NCBI GenBank assembly: GCA_041601615.1
Contig: JBFIHX010000003.1
Coordinates: 256,001-320,000 of the forward strand
Direction: 5' to 3'
Source: Thermoplasmatota archaeon
GTDB taxonomy: Archaea > Thermoplasmatota > E2 > JACPAO01 > JAHFTW01
Length of the DNA stretch: 64,000 nucleotides
The first letter of the stretch is position 1; every line of letters starts with the position of its first letter. Below the pieces are notes generated by a model. It did no database searches and was not told the DNA's origin. It was given only the letters and a program-made list of their open reading frames with translations. This document shows, one piece after another, positions 16,552 to 42,500 of the stretch. Position numbers and translations under genes: made by a program.

Positions 16552-18201
16552 ATGACTGGACAACAGCAACCCATCTACATCCTCAAGGAAGGCACGGAGC
16601 GCACCCGCGGTCGCAACGCTCAGTCCAACAACATCTACGCTGCCCGCCTCATCGCTGAGACCGTCAAGACGACGCTCGGCCCCCGCGGCATGGACAAGAT
16701 GCTTGTGGATTCCATGGGCGACGTGGTCATCACCAACGATGGCGCCACCATCCTCAAGGAAATCGACGTGGCCCACCCGGCTGCCAAGATGGTCATTGAG
16801 GTCGCCAAGACCCAGGACGCCGAGTGCGGCGACGGCACCACCACCAGTGTCATCCTCACGGGCGAACTGCTGAAGGTCGCCGGCGAACTCTTGGAGCAGG
16901 GCATCCACCCCACCACCATCACCAGCGGCTACAACATGGCCGCCAAGGAAGCCATCAAGGTCCTGGAGAACATGGCGATCACGATCAAGAAGGGCGACAC
17001 CACCACCCTTCGCAACATCGCCAAGACGAGCCTGGCCAGCAAGAACGCCAGCTCCAGCAGCGAACTTCTGTGCGACATCGTCGTGCGCGCCGTAACTGCC
17101 ATCGCCACCACCAACGGCACCGGCAAGAACGCCACCACCGAGGTCGACATCGACAACATCCTCGTCCAGAAGGCCCGCGGCGGCAGCCTGGAAGACACCG
17201 AACTCATCGAAGGCATTATCCTCGACAAGGAACGCGTCTCCAGCGGCATGCCCGAGTCCGTCACCAACGCGAAGATCGCTCTCGTCAACGCCGCCCTCGA
17301 AATCAAGAAGACCGAGGTCGACGCCAAGATCGAGATCACCGCCCCCGACCAACTCGGCGCCTTCCTCGCTCAGGAAGAAGCGACCCTGAAGTCCATGGTG
17401 GACAAGGTCAAGAAGAGCGGCGCCACCGTCCTCGTTTGCCAGAAGGGCATCGACGACCTCGCCCAGCACTTCCTCGCCAAGGCTGGCATCTACGCCATCC
17501 GCCGCGCCAAGAAGAGCGACATGGAGAAGCTCGCCAAGGCCACCAGCGCCACCATCGTCAACACCCTCGACGACCTGAAGGCCAACGTCCTCGGCACCGC
17601 CGGCAAGGTCTTCGAAAAGAAGATCGGTGACGACACCTTCACCTTCATCACCGAGTGCAAGGAAGCCAAGGCAGTCAGCATCCTGCTGCGCGGCGGCACC
17701 GAGCACGTCGTCGATGAAGCCGAGCGCGCCCTCGAAGACGCCCTGAGCGTCGTCGCTGTCGCTCTCGAAGACGGCAAGATGACTCCCGGCGGCGGCGCTG
17801 CTGCCACCGAGATCGCCATGCAACTACGCAGCTTTGCCCCCACCGTGGGCGGCCGCGAGCAAATGGCCGTCGAAGCCTTCGCGGACGCCGTCGAAGTGAT
17901 TCCCCGCACCCTGGCCGAGAACGCCGGTCTCGATGAGATCGACATCCTCCTGAGCCTGCGCCGCGCCCACAAGAAGGGCAACAGCAGCCACGGTGTCAAC
18001 GTCTTCTCGGGCAAGATCGAGAACATGTTCGACAACAACGTCATCGAGCCCCTGCGCGTCGGCACGCAAGAGGTCAAGGCCGCCACCGAGGCTGCCACCA
18101 TGATCCTGCGCATCGACGACGTCATCGCGGCCCGCGCCTTCTCCGGTGGAGAGGGTGGCCCCGGTGGCATGCCGGGCGGTATGGACGGAATGGATTTCTG
18201 A
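16552..18201 (+). CDS. ths: Thermosome (group II chaperonin) subunit
   Basis: [32 protein letters not shown]-rich tail; GGAGGT SD-like site before ATG 16552. Confidence 0.98.
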
Positions 18202-18323
18202 GCGTAGCGAAGAAATTCTTCCGAGGTGCCGAAGGCGCCGTTTCCGAGTGCGTTTCTGAACGCGCTTGAGGACGGAATGGATTTCTAGGCCCGGCGAAGA
18301 AATTCTTCCGAGGCGCCTCGTCC
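18183..18323 (+). repeat. Duplicated thermosome 3' end with hairpin unit (87-bp period)
   Basis: GGACGGAATGGATTTCT-N11-AGAAATTCTTCCGAGG at 18183 and 18270. Confidence 0.9.
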
Positions 18324-18342
18324 ACCAGACCATCGCGTCTGG

Positions 18343-18375
18343 CTCCTCTTTCCTTCTCTTCCTTCCTTTTCCCTT
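18343..18375 (+). terminator. Pyrimidine tract, probable archaeal terminator
   Basis: Uninterrupted C/T run downstream of thermosome; similar tracts follow other genes here. Confidence 0.55.
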
Positions 18376-18476
18376 GTTTCGCGGCCCTGGTGCCTTGCGC
18401 GCCGCCTGGTTTTGGGTGGTGATTGTTTCACGAATGCTCCAAAACCGCCATCCCTGCGCTTCCGGTGATGGGCCTT

Positions 18477-20084
18477 ATGCGTCGATGGTGGCTTGTGCTC
18501 TTGTTTTTGCCGTTGACGGTTTCGGGGTCGTCCCCGCCGGTCCTGGAACGGGCCTGGATGGATGTGGCCGAAGTGGAGGCGGGATCCGATGCGCTGGTGC
18601 ATCTGGAGTGGGCAACGGAGTCGAATTTGCTAGAGATGAGCGTCCATTTTGACGACGCGCATGGCAACTCAGGAACGATCTCTTCGAATGATTGCACCCT
18701 AGAGCGACACTCTGTGTGTCGGATGCATGTGCCTGCGAGTTTGCCTCCTTCGACGTACACCCTTTGGTTTGCGCACGCTCGCGACGACGCGGGAAACGAG
18801 GTGCACATACAGTCGTATGAGGTGCCGTTTTTGCAGTTTGCATTGCTGTCGAACGTAACGGATCGGCAAGCGCCCACATTGCTGGAAGTTGTCTTGTCGC
18901 CCTCGGTGCTTGCCCCCGGCGAAGTCGGTTGGCTGGGGCTTCGTTTCGATGAGCCGGAGCCAGTCCGGTCGGCGTATGTGCAGGTGGAGGGCCCTGGGGC
19001 GCATGGAAACGTGGATGTGTTGTGTCGGCCGGCGGTTCCTTGGACGGTGTGCAAGGTTCGGGCGGAGTGGGGCATTCCGGGTGGTGCGTACAGAATTTCG
19101 AGCATCACGGGAGTGGACCAGGCGGCCAATGCGAGACATGTCGATGGTGCCGAATTGAAACGGCTGTTGGGCGGAAACGCCACGGTGTGGGTTGAATCAG
19201 CGGTGGAGGATACGACGCCGCCCACGTTCCAAAAGCTCAGCGTCCAGCCAAGCGGGCATGCGCAGGAATCGTTCCGGGTGGATGTGGAGGCGGAGGATGC
19301 GTCGGGTTTGCGCGATGTGGTGTTGTTCATGCTGGAGTACGGGGTAAACACGGGACGGTTCTATGGCAAAGACTGTGTGCGGTCGCCTGGCGGCGCGTCG
19401 TGTCTCTTTTTTGCTGACGACTTGAAGGCGGGAACGCAGGAGATTTCGGGGTTGGCAATCGTTGATTCTGCCCGAAACAAGGGTTATGTGTGGGCGCCCA
19501 ACGATGAAAGCTTGGAGCCTAAGTTTGGCTCGGGCAATCAATCGGTGTTTCACCTAGAGCCGGCTCGTTGGAGCGGTCCTGTTTGGGGCGTCCATGCCGA
19601 TCCGGCGGCCGTGGTGACGGGTGAGTCGATTCGAATATTCTTGGCCTCGGAGTCCGTTGTTCAGGCTGATTTGCAGTTCATGAATGGTACAACGGAGGTT
19701 CCTGTGGAAGTCTCATGTCAACTCGAGGAGCGCGCGGATTTGTGGCAGGAGTGTAGAGGCTGGCTGCCGCCGAGCACGCCGGATGGCCTCTATTTTTTGT
19801 TGCATGGATTGTACACGGATGCGGCCGGCGCGGTGACGAATGTGTCCTATCCGTACGATGGGGTGCCGGTGTTTTTGGTCGGGGAACCGCTGAGCAAATC
19901 CGGTTCTGGGGCGCCGTTTACGCATCCTCGGCCAGCGCAGTTCGATGAAGATCCGACGCAACCGAATCAAGATTTCCTCGTCGTAGAGCCAGTGGACGAG
20001 GAGCGCGCATCCCATGCTGGCTCCTTGCCGGTGCTGGTGGTTGCGGTGGCGCTGTGTTGTTGGGTGCTGCGGCGGCGTTGCTAG
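18477..20084 (+). CDS. Surface protein with repeated Ig-like domains and C-terminal TM anchor
   Basis: Signal peptide; repeated D..PP...Y.......D.AGN-like modules; hydrophobic tail ending LRRRC. Confidence 0.75.
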   Translation: MRRWWLVLLFLPLTVSGSSPPVLERAWMDVAEVEAGSDALVHLEWATESNLLEMSVHFDDAHGNSGTISSNDCTLERHSVCRMHVPASLPPSTYTLWFAHARDDAGNEVHIQSYEVPFLQFALLSNVTDRQAPTLLEVVLSPSVLAPGEVGWLGLRFDEPEPVRSAYVQVEGPGAHGNVDVLCRPAVPWTVCKVRAEWGIPGGAYRISSITGVDQAANARHVDGAELKRLLGGNATVWVESAVEDTTPPTFQKLSVQPSGHAQESFRVDVEAEDASGLRDVVLFMLEYGVNTGRFYGKDCVRSPGGASCLFFADDLKAGTQEISGLAIVDSARNKGYVWAPNDESLEPKFGSGNQSVFHLEPARWSGPVWGVHADPAAVVTGESIRIFLASESVVQADLQFMNGTTEVPVEVSCQLEERADLWQECRGWLPPSTPDGLYFLLHGLYTDAAGAVTNVSYPYDGVPVFLVGEPLSKSGSGAPFTHPRPAQFDEDPTQPNQDFLVVEPVDEERASHAGSLPVLVVAVALCCWVLRRRC

Positions 20085-23123: not shown

Positions 23124-25337
23124 ATGCCGAAGACCGAAGCAACCTTGCGCGTCGTAGAAGCCCTACAGCAGGACGTCAGTTACGGGCGAGCACGCCTGGA
23201 CGGCCAGACACGGGTCGAACTCAACCTCAGTCCCGGTGACATCATCGAGATCCACGGCTCCAAACAAACGGCCGCTGTGGTCTGGAGAAGCCACCCTGGC
23301 GACGAGGGCAAGGGAATCATCCACATCGACAACCTCACCCGCAAGAACGCGGGCGTCAGCATCGGCGACAAGGTCACCATCAAGAAGGCGGAGGTCAAGG
23401 CTGCCAAGGCCGTCACCCTCGCGCCTGCCATCAGCCAGGATCAACAAATCCAATTCGGCGAAGGCATCGACGCACTCGCCAAGCGCGGCCTCCTGAAGCG
23501 CCCCGTCGTCCAGGGCGACATCGTGGTCGTTCCCAACATTGCGCTCTTTGGCAACGCACTCCCGTTCAGCATTGTCCAGACGAACCCCAAGGGCATCGTC
23601 TTGATCAACGAGGAAACGGTCATCAAAGTCAACGAGGAGGCAGCCGCACAAGCCGCCTCCGCCCCCAGCATCAGCTACGAGGACATCGGAGGTCTTCGCG
23701 ACGAACTTCAGAACGTCCGCGAAATGATCGAACTTCCCCTCAAGCACCCCGAGCTGTTCGATCGCCTCGGCATCGACCCGCCCAAAGGTGTCCTGCTGCA
23801 CGGCCCACCAGGCACGGGCAAAACCATGATCGCCAAGGCCGTCGCCAACGAAGCCGGCGCCCAGTTCTACACCATCAACGGCCCGGAGATCATGAGCAAG
23901 TTCTACGGCCAGTCCGAAGAAAACCTGCGCAAGACCTTCGAGGAAGCCGAAAAGTCCGCTCCCAGCATCGTCTTCATTGACGAAATGGACGCCATTGCCC
24001 CCAAGCGCGACGAAGTCCAGGGCGAAGTGGAACGCCGTGTCGTGAGCCAAATGCTCACCCTGATGGACGGCCTCAAGGGCCGCGGCAAAATCATCGTCAT
24101 CGGCGCCACCAACCGCCCCGATTCAGTGGACGAAGCCTTGCGCCGCCCCGGTCGCTTCGACCGCGAAATCGAAATCGGCGTTCCCGACAAGGAAGGCCGG
24201 CTCGAAATTCTGCTCATTCAGACCCGCAACATGCCGAAGGACGAGGACGTTGTTCTCGAAGAGCTTGCCAAGCTTACCTACGGCTTCGTCGGCGCGGATT
24301 TGATGGCTCTGGCTCGCGAGGCCGCCATGAAGGCACTGCGCCGCTACCTGCCGGAAATCGACTTGGACGAGCCCGTCCCGACCGAGATCCTTGAGCGCAT
24401 GTGTGTGACCATGGACGACTTCAAGGAAGCCTTGAAGATCGTGGACCCCAGCGCGCTTCGCGAATTCCTCGTGGAAGTGCCCAACACGACCTGGGAATCC
24501 GTCGGTGGTCTCGAAGACGTCAAGCAGCAACTCAAGGAAGCCGTCGAATGGCCCCTCGACGACCCCGAATCCTTCGAGCGCATGGGCATCCGGCCCCCGC
24601 GCGGCATCCTGTTGTACGGACCGCCCGGCACCGGCAAGACCCTGCTGGCCAAGGCAGTCGCCAACGAATCCGGCGCCAACTTCCTCTCCGTCAAAGGCCC
24701 CGAAGTTCTGTCCAAATGGGTTGGAGAATCCGAGAAGGCGATTCGTGAGATTTTCAAGAAGGCCAAGCAGAGCAGCCCCAGCATCATCTTCCTCGACGAA
24801 GTGGACGCCATCGCTCCCCGTCGCGGCGCCTACGAAGGCAGCCACGTCACCGAGAGTGTCGTCAATCAGCTCTTGACCAGTATGGACGGCATGGAATCCA
24901 TGGAAGGAGTCGTCGTCATCGGTGCCACCAACCGCCCGGACATCCTCGACAACGGTTTGCTTCGCGCCGGCCGCTTCGACCGTCTCATCAAGGTCACGGC
25001 GCCTGACGAGCCTGCTCGCATGGCGATTCTTCGCGTCCACGCCGAGAAAATGCCCCTTGCCAAGGATGTTGATCTTGCAGAGATTGGCAAACTCACCAAG
25101 GGCTATGTCGGCGCCGATCTGGAAGCACTGTGCCGTGAAGCTGCCATTGTGGCGCTGCGCGAGGACCGCAAGGCGCGCCAAGTCAGCAAGAACCACTTCG
25201 AGGAGGCCCTGCGAAGTGTTCGCAGCAGTGTCACCGAAGAGGTCGTCAAGTACTACGACCGGCTCGCCGAGCAACTTGGTCAAACAGCCGTAAAGAAGGT
25301 CGCAAGCGGTGGAGCTGGCGGCATGGAATTCCTCTAG
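23124..25337 (+). CDS. cdc48: CDC48/VCP-like AAA ATPase (VAT)
   Basis: Double-psi N-domain, two AAA modules GPPGTGKT, FIDE.D, ATNRPD, RPGRFDR. Confidence 0.97.
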   Translation: MPKTEATLRVVEALQQDVSYGRARLDGQTRVELNLSPGDIIEIHGSKQTAAVVWRSHPGDEGKGIIHIDNLTRKNAGVSIGDKVTIKKAEVKAAKAVTLAPAISQDQQIQFGEGIDALAKRGLLKRPVVQGDIVVVPNIALFGNALPFSIVQTNPKGIVLINEETVIKVNEEAAAQAASAPSISYEDIGGLRDELQNVREMIELPLKHPELFDRLGIDPPKGVLLHGPPGTGKTMIAKAVANEAGAQFYTINGPEIMSKFYGQSEENLRKTFEEAEKSAPSIVFIDEMDAIAPKRDEVQGEVERRVVSQMLTLMDGLKGRGKIIVIGATNRPDSVDEALRRPGRFDREIEIGVPDKEGRLEILLIQTRNMPKDEDVVLEELAKLTYGFVGADLMALAREAAMKALRRYLPEIDLDEPVPTEILERMCVTMDDFKEALKIVDPSALREFLVEVPNTTWESVGGLEDVKQQLKEAVEWPLDDPESFERMGIRPPRGILLYGPPGTGKTLLAKAVANESGANFLSVKGPEVLSKWVGESEKAIREIFKKAKQSSPSIIFLDEVDAIAPRRGAYEGSHVTESVVNQLLTSMDGMESMEGVVVIGATNRPDILDNGLLRAGRFDRLIKVTAPDEPARMAILRVHAEKMPLAKDVDLAEIGKLTKGYVGADLEALCREAAIVALREDRKARQVSKNHFEEALRSVRSSVTEEVVKYYDRLAEQLGQTAVKKVASGGAGGMEFL

Positions 25338-25668
25338 GCCGAATCGAGGAACCAAGCGAGCAACTGCCTGCAACAGGCGCCCGAGCCGAGGCGTGCGGCC
25401 CTGTTCCATCAGCGGTCAGCATGAGTGGTGCTTTGCGGCTGTGCCTACGGCTGGTGCCTTCCTGGAAATCGGATTTCAAAGAGGGCCAACCAAGCCCCGG
25501 CTGGGAGAATGGAGTCCAAAAATTCGGAATCCAAGGCCGCGTTGTGTGTCCAACTGGGGAATGATATGGGCACAACGGGGTTTAAGCCGCGATTGCATTG
25601 TGTCCTCGGTCAATAGACCCATTCTGGCAATTCGGTCTCGGCCGGTGCTGGAGTGACCACACCACCAA

Positions 25669-25698: not shown

Positions 25699-25711
25699 CC
25701 TCAATGCAATG

Positions 25712-32878: not shown

Positions 32879-34051
32879 CTAATCGTAGGTGATGGGTTCG
32901 GGGAAGTCGTCTGCGAGTAGGGTGCCTGATTCGCGCATGAGGGTGCGGGAGATGGCGATTTGGGAGAGGAGGCCCATGAATACGGGAATCAGGGCGCCGA
33001 GGCCGAGGATAAGTCCGCGGTCGTCGATATCGGCGTTGGGGCGATGCAGCAGGAGCACGATGAGGCTTGTGAGAATGAACAGGCCGACGTTGGCGGTGAT
33101 GCCGGCGTAGACGGAGCCTTGCCAGAGGTTGCCGAGGTTGCGGTCGCCTTGGGCGCCTAGGAGGGTGCCGTGGGTTCCAAGCACGGTTGCGAGGCCGGCA
33201 AGGAGGACGGCGGAGAAGCCGAGCCAGAGGGCGCGGCCGAGGTCTTCGTATTGGACGAGGTTGCCTCGGTTGGTTTCTTCGGCGGCGCGGCTGGTGCCTT
33301 CGTGGATGCGATAGGTGTCGTAGGCGCTGAACCAGAATGTGTCGTTGTCTGTGGCGGTGGCGCCGTTGTTGTTGCCGAGGTTGTCGGGCAGTTCTTGGGC
33401 GCTTAGTGGTGCTGCAAACAGCACGGCGAGGACGATGAGGGCCATCCAGCCGGCGCGGGTGTGCAATGCGGCTTGGGGGCGTAGGTCGAATTCGCCGGTG
33501 GCGCGTGCGGCGAGGCCTCGCGCTTGGACGATGACTGCGGCTAGTGCTAGGCCCAGGACGAGTGTCGGGGCGATGGTCCAGACACTGCTGTAGGCGTCGG
33601 GGGTAAATGGACCGGTGCGAAGGAGCGCGGCGGGTGCGTCGAAGCCGGCGATGGTGTGCACGAGTGTTGTCAGGAGGCGGCCGGTCCAGAGGGCGCTGTA
33701 GTGGATGGTGGCGGTGGCGCCTGCGAGGGTGGTGGCGAGGCCGGCCACGATGAGTCCATGGCGGTTGCGGCGGTCGCCGAGCCAGGCAAGTGCGGTTCCG
33801 GTGGCAAGCACGACGGCGGAGATGGCTCCGTATAGGGCTGCGGCGCCGGGGACGGTTTCATGGTCGAGGTCCCAGGAGAGTTGGTCCCACCAGAAGCGCA
33901 GTTCCGTGGTGGAGGTCTGGTTGGGCGCTTCGTCTTGCAAGAAAACGTGGGGTGCTGCGGCCAGCACGGTGAGTGCTAGGCCTGCGAGCACTAGCGCGGC
34001 AAAGAGGGCTCGCGAGGGGCGTTTTTCGGGTTGTGTTGTTGCGTCAACCAC
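32879..34051 (-). CDS. Multi-pass membrane protein (paralog 1 of 3)
   Basis: WTIAP, LRPQAALHTR, PLS, WFSA. Confidence 0.78.
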   Translation of the reverse strand: MVDATTQPEKRPSRALFAALVLAGLALTVLAAAPHVFLQDEAPNQTSTTELRFWWDQLSWDLDHETVPGAAALYGAISAVVLATGTALAWLGDRRNRHGLIVAGLATTLAGATATIHYSALWTGRLLTTLVHTIAGFDAPAALLRTGPFTPDAYSSVWTIAPTLVLGLALAAVIVQARGLAARATGEFDLRPQAALHTRAGWMALIVLAVLFAAPLSAQELPDNLGNNNGATATDNDTFWFSAYDTYRIHEGTSRAAEETNRGNLVQYEDLGRALWLGFSAVLLAGLATVLGTHGTLLGAQGDRNLGNLWQGSVYAGITANVGLFILTSLIVLLLHRPNADIDDRGLILGLGALIPVFMGLLSQIAISRTLMRESGTLLADDFPEPITYD

Positions 34052-34081
34052 CGGGAATCGGGCAACGACCCTGGGCCGGGG

Positions 34082-35164
34082 TCAAAAGGTTTGGGCGGGT
34101 AGGCTTGAAACGACTCGGTCCAGCGCCGCCAGCCCCTCTCGCAGTGGCCCGGGTTTGATGCCGAGGCTGATTCGAACGTGTCCGGGGGTCCCGAAGCCTT
34201 CGCCGGGAATGACGAGGACGCCGTTTTGGATGGCTTGGATTGCAATTTCGGTCGCCTCATGCATGGCGGGAAACGCCGTGAGTCCGATGGGTCCTGCATC
34301 GCGGCCGGTATCTTCGCACCAAGTTTGGTAGATGGCGTGCGTGGCGGCGAGGCGTTGGTCCAATAATTCGCGTGCTTCGGCTTCGCGGGCAAGCAGGTGC
34401 AGGCCGATGCGGGAGCCGACGACGGGGTTGGAAAGGGAGGCGAGGCGGTGTACCTGCATGATGCGGTCCGTGTCGGGGGCGGTGGCGGCGAGCCAGCCGG
34501 TGCGGATGCCGGGGGCCCCCCAGCATTTGTTGAATCCGCTGGTGGTGATGCAGGCGTCGTGTTGGTCGGCGGCGATGACGTGGTCTGTGAGTTCGCGGTA
34601 GACTTGGTCCACGAGTACGCGGGCGCCGACGTTGGCGGCGATGGCTCCGAGTGCTTCCAGGTCCTCGGCGCTGGCGGCGGCCCCGGTGGGGTTGTTGGGG
34701 CTGGTGAGGAGAACGAGTGCGGTGTTCGAGTCGGTGGCTTTTGCTACGTCGGCGGGGTCGAGTCGCCAGTTTTGGCCGGGGTCGCGGTCTACGAATCGGA
34801 CTTCGGCGCCAAGGCCTCGGGCAAGGTGTGGCAGTGGCGCGTAGTAGGGTCGTTCGCAGACCACGTTGCAGCCGGGGCCAAGGAAGGTCAGGAGGGTGGC
34901 GAGGTTGGCGCCGGTGGTGCCGGAGGTGACGATGAGTTCGTCGTCGGCGCGGTTCCAGCGCTGGGCAAGGGCCGCACGCAATTCGGTGGCGGGGTCGAGG
35001 TCTATCCAGGCTAGGTCTTTGGCTTCGAGTTCGAGGCCGTCGAGGCGGCCGGCCCAGGGGGCGACGAAGGCACTGGAACCCAGGTTGTGCTTCGGCGCGC
35101 CGTGCTTCCATGCTCGGGCGAGCCATTCCACGTGGTCGAAGGCTGGAAACTCCACGCGCTGCAA
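34082..35164 (-). CDS. PLP-dependent aminotransferase class I/II
   Basis: PNNPTG, DQVY, GFNKCWG.PG.R.GW, PGEGFG...HVRIS. Confidence 0.92.
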   Translation of the reverse strand: MQRVEFPAFDHVEWLARAWKHGAPKHNLGSSAFVAPWAGRLDGLELEAKDLAWIDLDPATELRAALAQRWNRADDELIVTSGTTGANLATLLTFLGPGCNVVCERPYYAPLPHLARGLGAEVRFVDRDPGQNWRLDPADVAKATDSNTALVLLTSPNNPTGAAASAEDLEALGAIAANVGARVLVDQVYRELTDHVIAADQHDACITTSGFNKCWGAPGIRTGWLAATAPDTDRIMQVHRLASLSNPVVGSRIGLHLLAREAEARELLDQRLAATHAIYQTWCEDTGRDAGPIGLTAFPAMHEATEIAIQAIQNGVLVIPGEGFGTPGHVRISLGIKPGPLREGLAALDRVVSSLPAQTF

Positions 35165-35242
35165 CAGCGGCTGGCCTTCATTTGTCTGGCGACCCCCTAC
35201 GCCTATGGTTTATCTGGAACGGTTCGATGGCGAACCGCCCTC

Positions 35243-36409
35243 ATGGACCCTCGGTTTCCCGCGATGCTCCTGTTGCCGTTGCTGCTCTTGCCCCTAGTTG
35301 ATCCCATTGCCGCGCAATCGGCCCCGGTGCCGGGCGCGGGCGCGAATCCTGAGCCCACGGTGCTGTTTTTGACGGGGATTGTGGACGAGGGGATCGATGG
35401 ATCGAGCGGCAATACGCTTGGCGACACTTTGGCAGGAACGGATCAATCGGTGACACTCTTGCCTTTGGTGGGCGGCTCCATCCAACTTCCCGGGGTCGGA
35501 CAACAGGAGGCCACTTGGGACAGCACCGAGCCGTGGCCAGAGGACCATGAATTGTTGGCCGACGTGCGCGTGGATGTGTGGATTCAAGGAGTTGCCAAAT
35601 TGCGCGTCGAACTGTACGACGTGGCTCCGGATGGCGCGGTTCGGCTCTTGGGCGAGGATGTGCGTACCGTCAGCCGCCAGGAAACCGCCCCGATTCTGGC
35701 GACCTTTGAGTTGGCAACGGAGGGCGAGGTGATGCAGCAGTACCACGGTTTGCGGCTTCTAGTCGCCATTGATGACCTGACCAGCATCGTCACTTTGCAC
35801 TACGATGCCGCCGATACGCCTGCCGCGGTAACCCTCACGCATGCGCCGCTCGACTCGGACAAGGACGGCATCCGCGACCGGGAAGAACGAGCGCTCGGAA
35901 CGGACCCCCTTGACCCCAAGGACCCCGACGACCGCATCTCCGACTCCGACCGCGATGGACTTTCGGACACCCGCGAACGGAGCCTCGGAACCAACCCCGA
36001 CAATCCAGATTCCGATGGCGACGGTTGGAGCGACGGCGCCGAAGTCGTGCTCGGAACCAATCCCCTAGACGGCGCCGACTTGCCCACGGACACGGACGCC
36101 GACGGCCTCGCGGACGCATGGGAACGCAGGCACTTTGGCGACCTCTCGGCCAACGCGGATGGCGACCCGGATGGCGACGGGCTCGTGAACATGCTGGAAC
36201 AACAATACGGAACCAATCCAAGAGACGCGGACTCGGACGACGACGGCACCGACGACGGCATGGAAGTGGCGCAAGGACGCGACCCACGCGACGCCGTGGA
36301 CCGCAGCGACCCAGAGCCCCGCGTGGTGGAACTCGTGGCCGGCATCCTCCTTGCCCTCGCGACCATTTCCTTTGCCACCGTCGGCCTACTTCGGAGGCAC
36401 GCCCTATGA
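35243..36409 (+). CDS. Surface protein with DxDxDG (TSP3-like Ca-binding) repeats and C-terminal TM
   Basis: Signal from MDPRF; repeated DSD.DG..D..E...GT.P; tail TM ending RRHAL. Confidence 0.85.
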   Translation: MDPRFPAMLLLPLLLLPLVDPIAAQSAPVPGAGANPEPTVLFLTGIVDEGIDGSSGNTLGDTLAGTDQSVTLLPLVGGSIQLPGVGQQEATWDSTEPWPEDHELLADVRVDVWIQGVAKLRVELYDVAPDGAVRLLGEDVRTVSRQETAPILATFELATEGEVMQQYHGLRLLVAIDDLTSIVTLHYDAADTPAAVTLTHAPLDSDKDGIRDREERALGTDPLDPKDPDDRISDSDRDGLSDTRERSLGTNPDNPDSDGDGWSDGAEVVLGTNPLDGADLPTDTDADGLADAWERRHFGDLSANADGDPDGDGLVNMLEQQYGTNPRDADSDDDGTDDGMEVAQGRDPRDAVDRSDPEPRVVELVAGILLALATISFATVGLLRRHAL

Positions 36410-36663
36410 GAAAACGGAGCATCCGATTCCTGCTCAAATGGAGCTTTCCGCTGACGTTTGCCCTGCTCGCTTTCGTGGTCGCGGACTTCTGGCTGTGGAA
36501 CAGTGAGGCGATGATCGTCTTGCTTGGCCTCATGACCCTCCTGTTGGTCGCGGTGCTCGTGTTGCTCGTCCTCGAAGACCGCCCCAAATTCCTGCGCATC
36601 GACCTCGACGAACGCATCGAACCCTCGACCACCGTCATCTACCCTCGTGATCCTCATGGCTGA
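36406..36663 (+). CDS. Small 2-TM protein
   Basis: MRKRSIRFLLKWSF... begins in ATGA overlap with upstream stop; resembles N-terminus of 57342..58175. Confidence 0.75.
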   Translation: MRKRSIRFLLKWSFPLTFALLAFVVADFWLWNSEAMIVLLGLMTLLLVAVLVLLVLEDRPKFLRIDLDERIEPSTTVIYPRDPHG

Positions 36664-37630
36664 ACTCGACATCCTGCCCGCTTGGGCCATCCACTACCTC
36701 AACGAGAACATCCTCGACCACGCTCGCGTGCTCAATGCACTGCCCATCGAGGACGGACGCAACTCGTACCTCCTGAACACCAGCCGAGGCGCCTTGATCT
36801 TGTCCAAGAAGCGATTCGGGGAGCCGCATCACTGGCTCCTTCCGTTGCCGGGCACCCGCGTGGACTTCGACTGCGATGTGTGCTCCGAGCGGATGGGATT
36901 CATCAACCCCGAAGTGCCCCGCATGGTTCACTGTCCACATTGCGCCGCCGAGTACACCCTCGTCGAAGAAGCCGGAGAGCTCCTACTGATGCCCAGTGAA
37001 ACCATCGTGGACCTCGAATCCGAGCCAACAGGGTCGCCCGAGCCGGACCCGTTGCCGCCAGCACCCCCGGAACCGCGCCCGGAGCCCGAGCCGGAACCAG
37101 AGCCTGAACCCTACACCGAACCTGAACCCGGCCCCCTCCCTCCGGCATCACTCGAGGCCGCCCCCGCCACCGCCGCCGCAAGTAGCGCAGTTCGATCCGG
37201 CGACTACCGCGACTACTTGGGCGACGTCCATCCAGTCATGGAAGTGGAGGGCATTGGACCCGTGTATGCTGCCAATCTCAAACGCATCGGCGTCCTGACC
37301 ACAGCCCGCCTCTGCTACGAGGATGCCGAAAGCCTCGCCGAACGCATCGGAGCCCGGCAAAAAACGGTCGAATCCTGGCAGGACATGGCCCAACTCATGA
37401 AAATCAAAGGCGTCGGACCACAGTACGCCGAAGTGCTCGTGCGCAGCGGCATTCGAATGGACGAGCTGCGCCGCCGCAGCCCCACTCGCATCGCCGACGA
37501 AGTCAACGCGTACCACGACAGCCTAGACACCAATGTGCTGGGAAACCGCGTCACCCCGAAACGCGTGGCGCGCTGGCAAGAGACCGCCAAGTCCATGCAG
37601 CGCGTCAAGCAACCCGTTCCCCTCGAATAA
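36656..37630 (+). CDS. Zn-ribbon + PE-rich linker + tandem helix-hairpin-helix (DUF4332-like) protein
   Basis: CDVC/CPHC; EPEP linker; VEGIGPVYA..L...G and IKGVGPQYAEVL..SG. Confidence 0.82.
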   Translation: MAELDILPAWAIHYLNENILDHARVLNALPIEDGRNSYLLNTSRGALILSKKRFGEPHHWLLPLPGTRVDFDCDVCSERMGFINPEVPRMVHCPHCAAEYTLVEEAGELLLMPSETIVDLESEPTGSPEPDPLPPAPPEPRPEPEPEPEPEPYTEPEPGPLPPASLEAAPATAAASSAVRSGDYRDYLGDVHPVMEVEGIGPVYAANLKRIGVLTTARLCYEDAESLAERIGARQKTVESWQDMAQLMKIKGVGPQYAEVLVRSGIRMDELRRRSPTRIADEVNAYHDSLDTNVLGNRVTPKRVARWQETAKSMQRVKQPVPLE

Positions 37631-37699
37631 GCGACGCCGTCGCCAGAAAAGCAAGGCATCGGTTTCAAACCCTCCTCCGGTCTCGGCCGCCTCGTCGCC

Positions 37700-38155
37700 A
37701 TGTACGCCTGCCCCCACTGCGACTCCACGAAGATGTTCATGGCCTACAAGGATGGCCACCTTCTGCGCGTCCTCGAAGACCACGAAGACGTGGACGGACT
37801 TTCCGAAGTCAGCGAACTCTTGTGCGTCGACTGCAACGAATGGTTCCAGAACCCCTACCAAGACTCTCATGGTCGAACCCTGACGGGCGAACTCGTCACC
37901 ATCACCGGCCTCAAGAGCAAAGGCACCATCAAAGTGGTCGCAAGCGGCCTCCAGTTCCCGTTCCACTACGACACGTACGAATCCGAAGCCGCCGAGGCAC
38001 TGCGCGGCCAACCCGCCGAATTCATCTCGGACCTGCGCGAATTCAGTGAACACCGCGACCACACCCTTGGCCTGCGCGTCAAAGAAGTAGGCAACCCCAA
38101 CACCTGGGTCTACCGCCTCGACCGCCGCCGCCTCTGGAAAGCATTGCGCACCTAG
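37700..38155 (+). CDS. Zn-ribbon-containing hypothetical protein
   Basis: CPHC...CVDC; typical codon usage. Confidence 0.75.
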   Translation: MYACPHCDSTKMFMAYKDGHLLRVLEDHEDVDGLSEVSELLCVDCNEWFQNPYQDSHGRTLTGELVTITGLKSKGTIKVVASGLQFPFHYDTYESEAAEALRGQPAEFISDLREFSEHRDHTLGLRVKEVGNPNTWVYRLDRRRLWKALRT

Positions 38156-38212
38156 TCCCCCCGCTCCGACTCGGTTCGCGCAGTTCAAGACCCGGGGCCA
38201 AATCGATTGACA

Positions 38213-38410
38213 ATGGACATCACTCCGCTCGTCTCCGCTGGAGACTTCGCCGCCCCGACGCCGATCATCATCGCCATCGTCCTGATTGTCCTGGGCCTGC
38301 TGATCATCCGGTTCGTCCTGAAAACCGTCTTTACCCTGGCAAAAATCGGCATCCTGGTGGCGATTGGCGTCGCCGCCTACCTTGGAATCTCGGTGCTGCT
38401 CGGCTCGTAA
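38213..38410 (+). CDS. Small 2-TM membrane protein
   Basis: Hydrophobic 65-aa ORF after TTCAAG promoter-like box. Confidence 0.7.
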   Translation: MDITPLVSAGDFAAPTPIIIAIVLIVLGLLIIRFVLKTVFTLAKIGILVAIGVAAYLGISVLLGS

Positions 38411-38955
38411 TCGCCAAGCACCGCAGCATCCGTTGAATCGCCGAGGTCCAACTCTCTAGGATCAAAAACCGTAACGTCCGGCGCCGGCCAGCCTGCCTCG
38501 CGCACCGCATCCAAAGCCGGCCCCACCGCGTCCCACGCTTCGTCCTCCTCCAGCGACAATATGGCAATGCGCAGCGGGGTTCTTGGGTCGCCCGCCGTGT
38601 CGCCATCGGCTCGGTACGCGTGGATGGATTCGAAAGGCCCATGGAATCCGGAGCGGAATGCATCCAAGGTCCTAGCCCGCACGTCCGGCACCTCCAACCC
38701 GCGCAAGAGGTCCGCCACCGGCCCCGCCCGCCACCGAATGACCGCGTCGCGTCCAGGCCGCAGCTTATCGAGCGCTTCCAAGGCCTCCAAATCGTCCACC
38801 ACCCGCCCAGCTGTTGCCGTCGGAACCCCTGCCGCCCGGGCGAGCCCCCGCAGCGTCCAAGGCCCGAATCCGGCTCGAAGCTCATCCAGTACCGCCCCCG
38901 CGCTGCGACGGCCAAGCACAGTAAGCAATGGGTTGTCGGCAAGCACCACAACCAT
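38377..38955 (-). CDS. Winged-HTH protein with degenerate nucleotidyltransferase-like domain
   Basis: TLRGLARAAGVPTATAGRVVDDL HTH; C-terminal alpha/beta region. Confidence 0.6.
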   Translation of the reverse strand: MVVVLADNPLLTVLGRRSAGAVLDELRAGFGPWTLRGLARAAGVPTATAGRVVDDLEALEALDKLRPGRDAVIRWRAGPVADLLRGLEVPDVRARTLDAFRSGFHGPFESIHAYRADGDTAGDPRTPLRIAILSLEEDEAWDAVGPALDAVREAGWPAPDVTVFDPRELDLGDSTDAAVLGDYEPSSTEIPR

Positions 38956-39057
38956 TGTATCAAAATTGGTACAATAGCTCTTTCTCCCGTACACGCGCCC
39001 ACCGGACCCAAACAGACAGGCAAAGCGGTCAAATAGGGGCGCTATGTGGGCCGCAAC

Positions 39058-39810
39058 ATGGCTCTAGCCCGTGCCCGCCAAGCTGCCCGCCGCGTCAAGG
39101 ACCGATGGAAGTCCAAGCAATGGTACACCATCTCGGCCCCCGCCGCGTTCAACAACCACCTGCTTGGCGAGACCTTCGCCGACGAACCCCAAAAGCTCAT
39201 CGGCCGCACCAGCGAAGTCACACTCCAAGACCTCACGGGCGACATGCGCCAAATGCACGTCAAGCTGACCTTCAAAGTCAACGAAGTCAACGACATGCAG
39301 GCCAAGACTGTCTTCACTGGCCACAACATGACCAGTGACTACGTGCGCCGCCTCACCCGCCGCGGGCACACCAAGATCCCCGCCGTCTTCGACGTCAAGA
39401 CCAAGGACGGCAGCCGCCTCCGTGTCAAGCCGTTCGCCATCACCGACCGCCGCGCCCAAACCGGCGCCGCCCAGGACATCCGCCGCATCATGGTGGAACA
39501 CATCGAGAAGGCCGCCAAGGAGAACACCCTCAGCGGATTCCTGAAGCTCGTCCTGATGGGCGAACTCAGCAACACGATCTACAAGGACGCCCGCAAGATT
39601 CACCCCCTGCGCCGCGTCGAGATCGCCAAGACGGAAGTCCTCAGCGCCCCCTCGATCGAAGTCGACGAAACCCCCATCATCGTCGTCGAAGAAGAGGTCG
39701 AAGAGACGGAAGAGAGCGAGGAAGACCTCGACGCCGGCCTCATCGAGAGCGACTCCGAAGACGAGGAATCCGAAGCTGAATCGGCCGACGACGACTCCGA
39801 AGAAGAGTAA
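39058..39810 (+). CDS. rps3ae: 30S ribosomal protein eS1 (S3Ae) with acidic tail
   Basis: VKDRWKSKQWY...AP..F, GR..EVTL.DLTGD, DYVRRL.RR, IHPLRRVEI.K. Confidence 0.97.
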   Translation: MALARARQAARRVKDRWKSKQWYTISAPAAFNNHLLGETFADEPQKLIGRTSEVTLQDLTGDMRQMHVKLTFKVNEVNDMQAKTVFTGHNMTSDYVRRLTRRGHTKIPAVFDVKTKDGSRLRVKPFAITDRRAQTGAAQDIRRIMVEHIEKAAKENTLSGFLKLVLMGELSNTIYKDARKIHPLRRVEIAKTEVLSAPSIEVDETPIIVVEEEVEETEESEEDLDAGLIESDSEDEESEAESADDDSEEE

Positions 39811-39820
39811 GCCCACGAGG

Positions 39821-39850
39821 CTCCCCTTTCCCCCTTCCCCTCCCCCTTCT
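39821..39850 (+). terminator. Pyrimidine tract after rps3ae
   Basis: 30-nt C/T-only run. Confidence 0.5.
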
Positions 39851-39854
39851 GTGG

Positions 39855-39926
39855 GGGCCTATAGGGTAGTGGATATCCTTTCGGCCTTCGAAGCCGAAAA
39901 CCCCGGTTCGAATCCGGGTAGGCCCG
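39855..39926 (+). tRNA. tRNA-Arg(TCG)
   Basis: Acceptor GGGCCTA/TAGGCCC, anticodon arm TCGGC-CTTCGAA-GCCGA, GGTTCGAATCC T-arm; no encoded CCA. Confidence 0.95.
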
Positions 39927-40036
39927 TTTTGCAGCACCCCGCAAGGGGATGCTTTACTGAAACAAGTCTCGTGGGGGCTAGGTGCCCCCGTTTGCGCGCC
40001 CCAAAGGAGCTGAGCCTAACGCCGGGCGCAGTGGGT

Positions 40037-40342
40037 TGCGAGGAGCAGGATGGTTTGCGGAGGCCGAGCGCAGCGAGGTTTCCGTAAACCGAGGGCGCGT
40101 AGCGCCCGGAGACTGCGGCTCGCATTGAGCGCAGCGAAATGCGAGGAGCAGGATGGGAGTGGGGAGCCCGGAGGGCGACCCCGACCTCCTGCGTCTCGCA
40201 TTCGAGCGAGCGCAGCGAGAGAGAATGCGAGGAGCAGGATTCGACGATAAGCGAATGCGAGCATTCGCTCATCGATCTCGCTCTCTTCGTTCGCGAGCAA
40301 ATCCTGCTCGCGCAAAATGCCCGGTCGGGGACCGGGCATGAA
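40037..40342 (-). repeat. Array of three tRNA-Leu 3'-end copies separated by hairpin-rich spacers
   Basis: TGCGAGGAGCAGGAT (+ strand) at 40037, 40140, 40226 and in the tRNA at 40343. Confidence 0.92.
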
Positions 40343-40424
40343 TGCGAGGAGCAGGATTCGAACCTGCGAACCACTAAGGACCAGCCCCTCAAGCTGGCGT
40401 CGTTGGCCGCTTGACTATCCTCGC
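40343..40424 (-). tRNA. tRNA-Leu(GAG)
   Basis: GCGAGGA/TCCTCGC acceptor, CCAGC-TTGAGGG-GCTGG anticodon arm, variable arm, GGTTCGAATCC. Confidence 0.95.
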
Positions 40425-40471
40425 GATGTGTTGGCGGATGCTGTTGTTCGTCCCGCTTGGAGACGAACAAG

Positions 40472-40555
40472 CGCGACGAGGGAGATTTGAACTCCCGTGG
40501 GAAGAATCCCAGAGGCTTAGCAGGCCCCCGCAATACCGAGCTATGCGATCGTCGC
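40472..40555 (-). tRNA. tRNA-Ser(GCT)
   Basis: GCGACGA/TCGTCGC acceptor, GGGGC-CTGCTAA-GCCTC anticodon arm, long variable arm, GTTCAAATC. Confidence 0.93.
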
Positions 40556-40687
40556 TTGCGGATGTCGGCTCGGAGCCCCGTGCCGAAGGCGGGCGACTTG
40601 GGTAGGGGTTATCACCATTTCGTCTGGCGCTGGCTGGAGCTTGGGCGTGGTGGAGGCGGTTTGGGCGTAGGTCTGGGGTCGTTTTGG

Positions 40688-41368
40688 GTGCCGATTGCTT
40701 ATGTGGTTCGTCGGCTCGGGCGGGTCGTGCGGTTCGTGGATGGTCGGCTGCTGATGTGGTTGCTCGTGGCGGTGTTTGCTTCGGGTGTGCCCTTGGCGGT
40801 TTGGTTTGATGCGGATGCGACGCGGGCGGTGTCGTTGGTGGAGCGATGGCTGCGGGGGGCGCACGCGGTTTCCACGGCGTTGCTGGTGTTGGGGACTGTG
40901 TTGCACTTGGTCATGCGGCTTCGGGGGCGCGTGGAGCCGCGGGTGGTCCGGTGGGGCGGTTTGTCGCTGGCGTTTGTGGGCCTTGCTGCGGCGACGGGCG
41001 CGCTCGTGGACCAGACGGGGCACGGGGCGCGAGCGTGGGCACGCCTTGGATTGGATGTGGGTGCGGTTTCGGCGGTTGCTGTGGTGCATGTGGCGTTTGC
41101 TTCGGTGCTGGTGGCGTTGGGCGTGTATGTTCATGTGGCGCGCAAGTCTCGGGTGCGGATTTTTGGCGGTTGGCAAAGTGCTGCGATTTCGTTGGTCCTG
41201 GTGGTCCTCGGCGTCGCGTTGTTGCCGGGCGTGGCTCCGGGTGCCGGTTCTGGGCACATTGCGACGGTTGCCGTGGCGCCGGGCGGCTTTGCGTGGCCGG
41301 TGTTGGTGGGCCTCGTGGTAGCTGTGGGTGCGCGCTGGTTGTCTTCTTGGCGTGGCGGCCTAGCGTAG
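40688..41368 (+). CDS. Membrane protein resembling a divergent cytochrome b N-terminal domain (start uncertain)
   Basis: LRGAH-x13-H and VH-x14-H His pairs in TM helices; W.G and TG motifs. Confidence 0.5.
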   Translation: MPIAYVVRRLGRVVRFVDGRLLMWLLVAVFASGVPLAVWFDADATRAVSLVERWLRGAHAVSTALLVLGTVLHLVMRLRGRVEPRVVRWGGLSLAFVGLAAATGALVDQTGHGARAWARLGLDVGAVSAVAVVHVAFASVLVALGVYVHVARKSRVRIFGGWQSAAISLVLVVLGVALLPGVAPGAGSGHIATVAVAPGGFAWPVLVGLVVAVGARWLSSWRGGLA

Positions 41369-42319
41369 AAAGTGGACGCCTGATTCGTCCACAGTGGCGC
41401 GAAGCTCGCTTGCTTCCCTGGCGAAGTCGCTGGAAAAGGGCGCACTGCGCGCCTCGAAGCGCTGCACCACGTCGAGGAGGGTGATGTTCCAGCCGCCGTC
41501 TTGGTGCGCCGAGGCTTCGATTTGCCAGACGAGGGGGCCGATGCTGGCCATGAGGAATCCGTCGTAGGCGGAGGTCTGCCGAATGGCCGCTACGGCGCCT
41601 GTGGAGCCTGCTGGGAGGTGCCAGGGGTACCATGCGGAGTCGAGAACGGTGTCGCCGCGCATCAAGTCCACGCGTGTGCCCTCGGCTTGTTCGTCCACGA
41701 CGATCCATTCCAATGGGTGTCGCGTGGCGTAGGTGTCGCCGTCGGGGGCCGAGAGAACGCGCACGCCTCCAAGCACCAGTAGGACGAGTACGATTACGGC
41801 TCCGGCTTGCAGCACGCGGGCGTCGCTCCAGTGTCGGCGCCAGCGCAACCACAATACGCCTGCGGCCGGCGGGGCAAGCCACCAAACAATCCAGTAGTAC
41901 CATTCGAGACTCCATGGTGTCGGAGAAAGGGGCCAGAAGAGGGGGATGCCGTGGTGCGTGATGCCGTCGAGCAAGAGGTGGCTCCAAGCGCCGAGCAAGA
42001 GGGGGCGCCACGCTCCAGGCCACCAGCGAGCCGCCGAGAGGCTGTTCCAGCGACGCGACAGCCGCCCAAGGAGCCGCACGAACAGCCACGCCGCCACAGG
42101 AGCCCCGAGAAGGCTGTGGCTTGCGCCTCGATGTTGCAACCAGTACAGGGAATCAAAGTACGACAAAGGCGCCACGAATGCGTCTAGGTCCGGCGCGAAG
42201 GCCGAGGCGGCCGCCACGAGGCCGTAGGAGGTCGCGGATGCGTGGCTTGGGCGCCCTAAGGCGGCGAATAAGATGATGCCCGCAGCGTAGCCCAAAAGGA
42301 CGTGGGTGAAGACATCCAC
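41360..42319 (-). CDS. Membrane metal-dependent hydrolase (YbcI/YdjM-like)
   Basis: D..TH, PDLD, HRGASHS, SHLLLD..T..G.PLFWP. Confidence 0.88.
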   Translation of the reverse strand: MDVFTHVLLGYAAGIILFAALGRPSHASATSYGLVAAASAFAPDLDAFVAPLSYFDSLYWLQHRGASHSLLGAPVAAWLFVRLLGRLSRRWNSLSAARWWPGAWRPLLLGAWSHLLLDGITHHGIPLFWPLSPTPWSLEWYYWIVWWLAPPAAGVLWLRWRRHWSDARVLQAGAVIVLVLLVLGGVRVLSAPDGDTYATRHPLEWIVVDEQAEGTRVDLMRGDTVLDSAWYPWHLPAGSTGAVAAIRQTSAYDGFLMASIGPLVWQIEASAHQDGGWNITLLDVVQRFEARSAPFSSDFAREASELRATVDESGVHFLR

Positions 42320-42373
42320 GGACACCGCCAGCGAGCAAGCCGGTTGAGGGTTTGCCGAAGGGGCGGTGCAGAC

Positions 42374-42500
42374 CTACTTCGTAAGCACCGTCTTCACGGC
42401 GTCCAGCCGCGTGCTGCACTTCGCTTCGCTCGTACCGCTGCGGGCTCGATGGCTCCGTTTGGCCCTTACTTCGTAAGGACCGCTCGGACCGCATCGAGCA
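42374..42500 (-). repeat. Duplicated transketolase 3' end with hairpin unit (92-bp period)
   Basis: LDAVRAVLTK-TAA (gene) and LDAVKTVLTK-TAG (downstream copy) flanking GAGCGAAGCGA. Confidence 0.88.

Follow-up and report, generated by a model that had tools for sequence, protein, structure and literature searches.

Several known processes join new DNA to conserved genes. Tyrosine integrases leave attachment (att) site duplications in tRNA genes and in the 3' ends of protein genes, and integrase-less, att-flanked derivatives are known as well; a surrogate 3' end makes the gene whole again, and the original end is displaced. Casposons insert at the 3' ends of aEF-2 (archaeal elongation factor 2) or tRNA genes, with duplications of 14-15 bp. 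In homology-facilitated illegitimate recombination during natural transformation, foreign DNA is led in by one conserved anchor, and homology is lacking at its other junction. In this work, we analyze a 64,000-nt stretch of the genome of a Thermoplasmatota archaeon (assembly GCA_041601615.1, contig JBFIHX010000003.1, positions 256,001 to 320,000; below, the window), in which the end of a gene (D) is followed by hairpins (X) and then by a second copy of the gene end downstream (D'). We rate this architecture as a gene-end duplication, as at recombination or integration junctions, combined with hairpin modules resembling repetitive extragenic palindromes (REPs), and no description of it was found in the open-access literature searched. 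The units are tentatively read here as hairpin-terminated replacement gene ends that recombined in via homology in the conserved gene end, which we hold to be possible but short of probable.

Like att sites, the units consist of a direct repeat of the 3' part of a gene, one copy belonging to the intact gene and the copy on the far side being partial; orientation is fixed, and tandem arrays and silent-site differences occur. The repeated stretch starts within the gene and extends to its end; in tRNAs, it starts in the T loop or anticodon loop and reaches the 3' end. Unlike att sites, they hold only 40-110 nt of hairpins between the repeats, with no open reading frame (ORF), gene or integrase; moreover, one hairpin family occurs at many genes, which a site-specific integrase would not allow, and no shared repeat core was seen. 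Casposons share aEF-2 and tRNA ends as targets, but Cas1 was not found in the genome of the window, and the repeat length varies here. In contrast to homology-facilitated recombination, the non-homologous junction is always the foot of a hairpin on one side and lies within the last ~100 nt of the same gene on the other. The units also differ from diversity-generating retroelements, as there is no reverse transcriptase (RT) match in that genome, and the differences between copies are third-position changes of all kinds, not changes at template adenines.

Three loci in the window

The window is part of contig C3 of its own genome, labelled G000, an assembly of 2.79 Mb in 30 contigs (62% GC, 93% complete); relatives are labelled G001, G002 and so on, with G001 and G002 in the same genus as G000, and the family set comprises 32 genomes. 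The sequencing runs that contain the window are marine metagenomes. An earlier note on this DNA had proposed that three loci share one architecture, and this is confirmed: at each, the gene end, 16-48 nt of it, recurs at spacings of 86-117 nt, together with inverted copies and with a hairpin tip, GAGCGNAGCGA, referred to below as the cap. The cap occurs five times in the window (18200+, 40066+, 40127+, 40208+ and 42421-); 100 shuffles gave 0.23 on average and never more than 2.

The first locus is the intact thermosome gene (16528..18201, + strand; 16552-18201 according to our own gene caller; Pfam Cpn60_TCP1, 614 bits). Copy D comprises its last 17 nt (18183-18199), and the first two bases of the cap complete the TGA stop codon. 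The insert X (18200..18269, + strand), unique in the genome, opens with the cap GAGCGTAGCGA (18200-18210) and continues with I, an inverted copy of the gene end (18211-18226); of its two further hairpins, the first is a short GC hairpin (~18225-18239) and the other lies at ~18246-18270. This stretch can fold either as a D:I hairpin tipped by the cap or as an I:D' closing stem around two hairpins (z = -4.1). The second copy (18270..18317, + strand) is a 48-nt repeat of 18183-18230 with 88% identity at a spacing of 87; the repeated block takes in gene end, cap and imperfect inverted copy, and all mismatches but one fall in the loop. Specifically, D' (18270-18286) has a TAG stop instead of the TGA of D and carries the loop AGGCCCGGCGA instead, with the same inverted arm. 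It is followed by a CT-rich tract typical of native downstream regions, and the orthologue in the same-genus genome G001 has a TAG end and a simple hairpin, with no duplicate. Such CT-rich tracts (TTTCCTTCTCTTCCTTCC...) stand after hairpins or D' behind many genes of the family, for example at 18320-18400 of the window and at C5:74640-74700 of G000, and are possibly real transcription terminators.

The second locus is an intact tRNA-Leu(gag) gene (40343..40424, - strand; ARAGORN; Rfam tRNA, 52.5 bits) with an array of three units downstream (40034..40342, - strand). Its 3' end is present four times, at 40340, 40223, 40137 and 40034 (spacings 117, 86 and 103), the copies occupying 40223-40244, 40137-40158 and 40034-40055. 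The inverted copies (14-17 nt, 86-88% complementarity) occupy 40187-40203 and 40113-40126. Caps are found at 40208-40218, 40127-40137 and 40066-40076; they read on the + strand, antisense to the tRNA. No cap is present in the first unit (40245-40339). The units fold as a closing stem with hairpins (z = -4.1 and -5.2).

At the third locus, the C-terminal section of transketolase (42466..43662, - strand, with the start at 43467 according to our own gene caller; Pfam Transket_pyr and Transketolase_C), D consists of the last 16 nt and the TAA stop codon (42466-42482), and the inverted copy is a 9-bp hairpin spanning this stop (42461-42481). The insert X (42391..42465, - strand) is unique in the genome and unlike the DNA after D'. 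Its cap, GAGCGAAGCGA (42421-42431), forms a separate weak hairpin 35 nt past the gene-end hairpin, hence does not cap the latter, and the 3' arm of its final hairpin overlaps D'. The second copy (42375..42390, - strand, with a TAG stop at 42374-42376) lies at a spacing of 92 from D and shows one synonymous difference (GTC/GTG).

The earlier description is thus accurate, with two qualifications: the gene-end hairpin of transketolase is not capped, and the first tRNA-Leu unit lacks a cap. Stems that share structure and not sequence were also proposed, and rightly so: the inserts are unique in the genome, apart from one tRNA-Leu unit with an 89% paralogue at a second tRNA-Leu gene, and the tips are conserved. 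Being unique, the three inserts do not represent copies of one repeated element.

An assembly or binning artefact joining two strain variants of a gene end could be suspected in a metagenome assembly of 30 contigs where D and D' look like two alleles. The population data, which are Logan contigs only (4 runs of one study, with window 24000-43900 covered and the thermosome locus outside coverage), include a 10405-nt contig (run X1, possibly the source sample) that bridges the tRNA-Leu array without difference, and contigs of runs X1, X2 and X3 that bridge the transketolase unit unchanged. The assembly check suggested by the earlier note thus came out in favor of real units at these two loci; moreover, assemblies from many other genera show this architecture too, and we regard an artefact as scarcely credible. 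Two long ORFs of the window, at 18423-20084 (+) and 40911-42089 (-), have no Pfam match and were not called by the codon-usage gene caller; they may be spurious frames of a GC-rich genome.

Extent in the genome and recurrence among relatives

In a sensitive scan of G000, the last 120 nt of each of the 1996 predicted genes was aligned to the 15-280 nt downstream, with a score of at least 30 required. The D-X-D' layout was found at 38 of the 1996 genes; shuffling left none, the mirrored scan of 5' ends gave 9 and a search for inverted copies gave 1. Several tRNAs have the layout likewise. A separate seed scan returned 194 direct-repeat pairs (at least 15 nt, spacing 50-160); 23 of these have one copy on the 3' end of a gene or tRNA and the other outside the gene, versus 7 for 5' ends. 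Caps are distributed similarly, with 32 lying -12 to 150 nt downstream of 3' ends versus 12 upstream of 5' ends. The predicted non-random tie to gene and tRNA ends is borne out by these controls. The 38 pairs have a median period of 142 nt (range 65-378), and their repeats span 16 to at least 120 nt; over the units as a class, repeat length varies from 12 to >125 nt. Housekeeping genes are affected, including those for thermosome, GAPDH, H+-pyrophosphatase (PPase), aEF-2, ribosomal protein S7, an aminoacyl-tRNA synthetase, acyl-CoA dehydrogenases and topoisomerase VI A, among others; the names were assigned by reading C-terminal sequences, with a Pfam check for thermosome and transketolase only.

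Units recur in the relatives. Of the 14 readable family genomes, 6 carry units behind aEF-2 and 7 are empty, with 1 doubtful case; the units differ in boundaries and X, and one genome has two of them. Thermosome units occur in G000 and in 3 of 10 readable relatives, a fourth having a cap hairpin. Downstream copies (one to three) accompany 10 of the 12 tRNA-Leu genes examined and match each tRNA's own acceptor variant; two paralogous tRNA-Leu genes of G000 are among them. It is shown in this way that units arise independently at the same conserved genes in different genera. They also form arrays of two or three near-identical units (GAPDH, tRNA-Ser, C5:92034 and C1:24217). The GAPDH copies D, D' and D'' are a mosaic, with left or right halves shared as B-P', P-P' and P-B', as expected from crossovers inside D.

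Age and origin of the two gene ends

Empty sites in relatives, which the earlier note had anticipated, were found at three orthologous positions in same-genus genomes: at aEF-2 (G002), at a NifU-like gene (G001) and at ETF-alpha (G002). The aEF-2 gene of G002 ends in ...GAATAG, followed by a 7-bp hairpin arm, and D' of G000 (TAG stop) is colinear with it together with the DNA that follows; in G000, 104 nt of D (with a new stop, TGA) and X sit upstream of D'. The NifU-like gene shows the same polarity relative to G001, D' having silent-site states common to both relatives and D having two derived ones. At ETF-alpha, the stop codon of G002 is followed only by a short hairpin, and both D' and a second hairpin are lacking. 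A stem like the first hairpin of element E, a conserved form of X described below, is already present there in both same-genus relatives, so this part of E is old flank at this locus. These comparisons show that D' with its downstream DNA is the ancestral end and that D and X were added upstream of it. Where the stops of D and D' differ, D' has TAG in 10 of 13 G000 pairs; a preference for TAG stops as an insertion target is not claimed, being weak once the observable combinations are allowed for.

The differences between D and D' are distributed as in coding sequence under use. Over the 38 pairs they number 44/27/115 at codon positions 1/2/3 (115 of 186 at the third), and the D' triplet aligned with the stop is itself a stop in 27 of the 38. 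Synonymous and non-synonymous changes at single loci amount to 13/0 over 54 nt, 14/1 over 80 nt and 5/0 over 57 nt, and one 120-nt copy reaches at least 180 nt when translated. In relatives, counts made by eye were 5/0 (aEF-2 of G015), 7/1 (a ThyX-like gene of G014), 4/0 (a unit of G005) and 3/0 (a unit of G006). Because an unused duplicate left in place would change at all codon positions, these D' copies served as gene ends during most of the divergence; therefore, one copy of the diverged pairs must derive from another lineage or allele. Such pairs are thereby shown to be separate alleles and not decaying duplicates. The idea that the direct repeats are fresh target duplications consequently fails, D and D' being often old, separately evolved coding alleles with D' the ancestral one. 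At C5:111455, D' matches the same-genus orthologue at 65/83 and D at 54/77, and the identity of the gene to this orthologue falls from ~0.86 to ~0.71 over the last ~100 nt, which suggests that D and X may be an import here.

The DNA between the copies was also compared with that beyond them. At 16 loci, X shows no similarity to the DNA after D' in 11 cases, marginal similarity in 2 (p 0.04-0.05) and clear similarity in 3; the flank itself is duplicated at three loci, namely in the thermosome arm, in E versus E' on C11 (~80% identity) and in the spacer of C2:306496. A simple tandem duplication of gene end and flank was rejected on this count of 3 out of 16. A local replication accident is another matter: stable hairpins could stall synthesis or protect flaps, and about one Okazaki-fragment length could be recopied by a template switch or from an uncut flap, with neither an element nor foreign DNA involved. 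The period is of Okazaki-fragment size, the three duplicated flanks, the tandem arrays of near-identical units and the many identical D/D' pairs fit such recopying, and the cap motif GCGNAGC is described in a review as extraordinarily stable and nuclease resistant as DNA, poorly bound by single-stranded DNA-binding protein and much less stable as RNA (PMC13037366). The recopying is opposed by the 11 loci where X is unlike the DNA after D', by the third-position bias and kept stops, which show that many D' were working ends during most of the divergence, and by the empty-site loci, where the stop codon and flank of D differ from the ancestral ones. We consider this explanation unlikely, though not negligible.

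The explanation that we favor, replacement of gene ends by hairpin-terminated ones, is preferred because the polarity, the allelic divergence, the junction at the hairpin foot, the bias to conserved genes and tRNAs, the ending of similarity at the stop and the mosaics resemble surrogate-end integration sites. A DNA segment made of the terminal part of a gene and its hairpin flank would pair with the resident gene through the conserved gene end. As a small circle or concatemer, it could enter through one crossover (Campbell type); alternatively, it could do so by one-sided homologous pairing of an incoming strand whose far end would be defined and protected by nuclease-resistant terminal hairpins; both routes would rebuild the gene and push the resident end downstream. 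Afterwards, the units would multiply in tandem, partly homogenize or decay. The reused part would be the hairpin modules (cap tip, E and CTTG-loop hairpins), retained by selection on structure, and the candidate machinery is host homologous recombination or one of the tyrosine recombinases of the genome.

Several points weigh against this explanation. A double-stranded circle of 90-270 bp would be a strained substrate, and such molecules are hypothetical; the first origin of a unit at a new gene is left unexplained. The 24 matches of E at unrelated loci of G000 require movement that homology in D cannot give, and the caps at tRNA-Leu are antisense, so that a single strand-specific hairpin-end mechanism fails to fit every locus. 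In the orthologous units compared, D' matches the D of its own genome while the spacers diverge, and some gene conversion or homogenization, or repeated re-integration, is therefore required. The genome-wide codon tally is 94 synonymous versus 59 non-synonymous changes, since weak and decayed pairs are included. A foreign copy is resolved, weakly, at one locus, with no signal at two others, and many pairs are identical (e.g., 76/76, 71/71 and 34/34 nt), which fits in-place duplication equally well. Finally, the contigs of the 4 runs from one study showed neither an excised circle nor an empty allele or a length variant; missing circles or indels in such data carry no weight against mobility.

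A bolder version would make the units an integrase-free, homology-guided mobile system, in which hairpin-capped last codons excise by D x D' recombination, pass between related archaea and re-enter the same gene, so that housekeeping and tRNA 3' ends are continually replaced. We regard it as improbable; if it were true, the cap-tipped D-cap-I hairpin would be plausible raw material for new integron attC sites. If ends are indeed replaced, ~2% of the genes in a widespread marine archaeal lineage would record a past 3'-end replacement, including pieces from other lineages, and the units would provide a direct, countable marker of between-lineage recombination in uncultured archaea; very stable hairpins, best known from DNA chemistry, would then shape where exchanges end. 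For annotation, small ORFs or repeats may be called in error where only ghost ends exist, and the sequence after a stop is not a neutral spacer in these genomes.

Hairpin modules, recombinases and the integron

In G000, the cap occurs 53 times, compared with 16 for the reversed motif. Non-coding DNA, 15% of the genome, contains 40 of the 53; the remaining 13 are mostly in coding sequence, and several caps are in attC sites. The cap supplies the GA of a TGA stop codon in 5 cases, and its strand is sense in 20 of 26 cases at protein genes and antisense at three tRNA-Leu genes. An excess over the reversed motif is found in the own family (e.g., 46 versus 10 and 41 versus 6) and is absent in sister families (13 versus 15 and 9 versus 22). 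As a hallmark of the units, which the earlier note had made of it, the cap is thus retained for its enrichment at 3' ends but is one of several conserved tips, since CTTG- and TTCG-loop hairpins recur too.

At most other loci, as at the three of the window, X is unique in the genome. In one class, which we call Y-units, the order is tip, inverted copy I of the gene end, short GC hairpin, longer hairpin and D'; I can pair either with D, to form a cap-tipped hairpin, or with D', to form a stem that encloses two hairpins (z = -2.7 to -5.2). The second class is element E, a conserved 59-nt sequence of two hairpins with precise ends, which has 13 regular-expression and 24 covariance-model matches in G000 and is present in 22 of the 32 family genomes, often in tandem with periods of ~100-145 nt. 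Its flanking repeats at >10 different genes are unrelated to one another. In the E alignment, which was fitted to the model and thereby favors its structural support, 97.9% of cells are paired, versus 80.8% when shuffled and ~42% when the structure is slid, and double changes occur at 13 of 17 pairs; on these figures, the structure is strongly supported, and the hairpins of E appear to be under structural selection. The conservation of a U.G pair speaks for the sense strand as the one that folds. At 10 of 11 G000 loci, E has the same sense as the upstream gene; at the exception, it lies upstream of a tRNA-Ser in antisense.

The junction between the last hairpin and D' is a constant feature. 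At E loci in other genera, a flanking direct repeat scored at least 25 in 16 of 22 cases, and in 15 of these 16, D' began at the foot of E (the last 3-8 model positions). Another hairpin, GGCCCACTTGTGGGCC (16 nt), was found in 5 of the 32 family genomes, once per genome, representing five genera (reversed control, 0); at 4 of these 5 sites, the hairpin is followed after 0-5 nt by the start of a second copy of the upstream gene end, and the gene differs from site to site. An identical 23-nt hairpin with trailing bases (GCGGCCCACTTGTGGGCCGTATG) stands just before D' at an aminoacyl-tRNA synthetase gene (G005:C3, ~31150-31260) and at aEF-2 (G000 C5:74580-74610). Viral carriers were considered and set aside: GGCCCACTTGTGGGCC is found in 16 viral contigs with no copy of the upstream sequence after it, and several of these look like ordinary terminators; the CTTG hairpin was found in 1 viral contig. 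A scan of named-genome contigs with the E pattern gave 39 stretches, 4 of them in a Thermoplasmatota metagenome-assembled genome (MAG), its only archaeal matches, and 35 in bacterial records; the 4 archaeal ones were inspected, and the 35 are assumed to be chance or unrelated conserved sequence.

Recurrent hairpins with precise ends recall extragenic elements. Similar to REPs, REP doublets (REPINs) with their REP-associated tyrosine transposases (RAYTs) and to palindromes derived from insertion sequences of the IS200/IS605 type, the units are short extragenic hairpins enriched after gene ends, with strand-specific folding and sometimes in arrays. In contrast to them, the Y1_Tnp domain was not found in the genome, the inserts at the three loci lack numerous near-identical copies, most inserts are single copy and only E is multi-copy; REP insertion does not copy a gene end, and no conserved tetranucleotide was seen at the hairpin foot here. 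Nor is there a TnpA/TnpB match in G000 as for IS200/IS605, which make no target duplication; long direct repeats are present here. MITEs (miniature inverted-repeat transposable elements) are likewise small, non-coding, structured and flanked by direct repeats, and E is multi-copy as they are; they differ in that the repeats here are of variable length and often anciently diverged, no common terminal inverted repeats are present (the arms are locus-specific) and no parent insertion sequence was seen. A described Pyrobaculum small RNA (sRNA) element is different from E and MITE-like (PMC6009581).

It can nevertheless be asked whether the units are non-autonomous mobile hairpin elements whose insertion, by a trans-acting enzyme recognizing folded single strands, duplicates a long and variable stretch of target. 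The conservation, precise ends, spread and frequent tandem arrangement of E speak for this, and so does the 16-nt hairpin common to five genera at different genes. At young loci (L099, L085, L102, L083, L088 and L089), the repeat abuts the 5' end of E with a spacer of 0-5 nt, much like a target duplication, and at the PPase locus of G002, spacer and post-D' DNA are recognizably alike by eye, though diverged. An integron integrase and cap-tipped attC hairpins are also present in the genome. On the other side, most inserts are single copy, repeats of 12 to >125 nt match no known transposase, and 13-14 synonymous differences between D and D' are incompatible with a duplication made at insertion; the intact gene is always on the same side of E, the AAC...GTT boxes are absent from the units as judged by reading the sequences, and the first hairpin of E at ETF-alpha is old flank and no new arrival. 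Enzymes of several candidate families were also not found, as detailed next, and we think such elements a doubtful, though not far-fetched, source of the units.

In G000, at its 93% completeness, the Y1/HUH transposase (PF01797), TnpB (PF07282), Cas1 (PF01867) and RT (PF00078) gave 0 matches each; PF01797 was matched in 6 of 14 control genomes. HUH/RAYT, TnpB, Cas1 and RT were accordingly rejected as the responsible enzyme, with absence unproven at this completeness and with GIY-YIG enzymes and newer families of rolling-circle endonucleases, such as Rep-Arvir (PMC13107129), not searched. Three tyrosine-recombinase matches were obtained in G000, one of them an integron integrase outside the window (C16:15954-17264; TIGR02249, 414.7 bits, cut-off 265) and another a recombinase on C13. 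The trans-acting enzyme postulated earlier was not found as HUH/RAYT, but a structure-specific tyrosine recombinase does exist elsewhere in the genome.

Integrons are known in archaeal MAGs (PMC9668308). In G000, attC-like hairpins with RYYYAAC...GTTRRRY boxes, many of them tipped by GAGCGNAGCGA, lie on C16 (118, 3838, 5348 and 12895), C21 (880, 2957 and 6570) and C25 (3352, 4412 and 7036), and elsewhere at C11:73634 and 75042, C1:1943 and 2838, C13:51882, C4:186276 and C5:16725. A regular-expression and fold scan for the boxes gave 23 matches on C1, C2, C3, C8, C11, C12, C13, C14, C16, C17 and C25; those at C1:2838 and on C11, C13, C16 and C25 resemble cap-tipped attC hairpins, and there was no match at the three window loci. 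The integron array is apparently split across several small contigs of lower GC. Similar to attC sites, the units are imperfect hairpins directly after ORFs with a common structure and not a common sequence; a tyrosine recombinase recombines attC sites in their folded, single-stranded form, and the integrase and hairpins with the same cap tip occur in this genome. Unlike attC sites, the units stand behind housekeeping genes and not cassettes, and they have a gene-end copy that attC recombination does not make. Because the RYYYAAC...GTTRRRY boxes are absent, the gene-end units are not attC sites; the shared tip and a recombinase acting on folded single strands keep the link to integrons open. 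With this tip and an integrase present, it becomes testable how attC hairpins become attached to genes.

The structural conservation also allows a function at the RNA level, in which X and D', the latter as the 3' strand of the closing stem, would be a selected 3' untranslated region or tRNA trailer for stabilization, processing or a D:I/I:D' switch, the duplication being kept because it is useful. The three-way-junction folds, the covariation of E with its sense-strand U.G pair and its orientation at 10 of 11 loci point in this direction. By reading, the architecture of the tRNA-Leu units is kept across genera despite changed stems, and loops of the UUCG/CUUG type, which are stable classes in RNA, occur in the hairpins. 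Such a module leaves the origin of D', its stop codon and the synonymous-only differences unexplained; E units have no inverted copy able to pair with D', and the cap is antisense at tRNA-Leu. The far greater stability of the cap as DNA than as RNA (PMC13037366) also counts against it. In Rfam searches, no family matched: the window gave only three tRNAs at gathering thresholds, and five E or tRNA-Leu loci at E <= 1 gave only tRNAs and two weak chance matches overlapping a tRNA; 0 RNA runs containing the window were found. E was also rejected as a C/D-box sRNA, as 'ATGATCGA' resembles a C box but is none, and there is no D box. A functional RNA module can be combined with any of the other explanations; as the whole account of the units, it seems rather improbable.

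Other repeats of G000 were noted beside the units. Mirror-image arrangements, with copies of the 5' end and of the upstream DNA repeated upstream, are found at tRNA-Gln (C8:91779-91880), tRNA-Ser(tga) (C2:114771-115171) and tRNA-Leu(taa) (C14:35610-35881); in the latter two, the 5' copies are separated by element E in antisense. Two identical tandem tRNA-Gly(gcc) genes, 105 nt apart (C4:142560-142738), are a whole-gene duplication, unlike the partial copies. Intergenic tandem repeats without a gene end lie at C17:7457-7765, C10:84236-84640 and C1:54721-54830, with periods of ~157-159, 147-148 and 19 nt, respectively, and a 'TTTCGCCCC...GGTAATCCGAGGGCG' hairpin block is common to the units of C17 and C1:420416. 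A cap-containing 83-nt tandem repeat ends one contig and starts another (C4:235625-235753 and C9:74-240); the two are probably one array at which the assembly broke.

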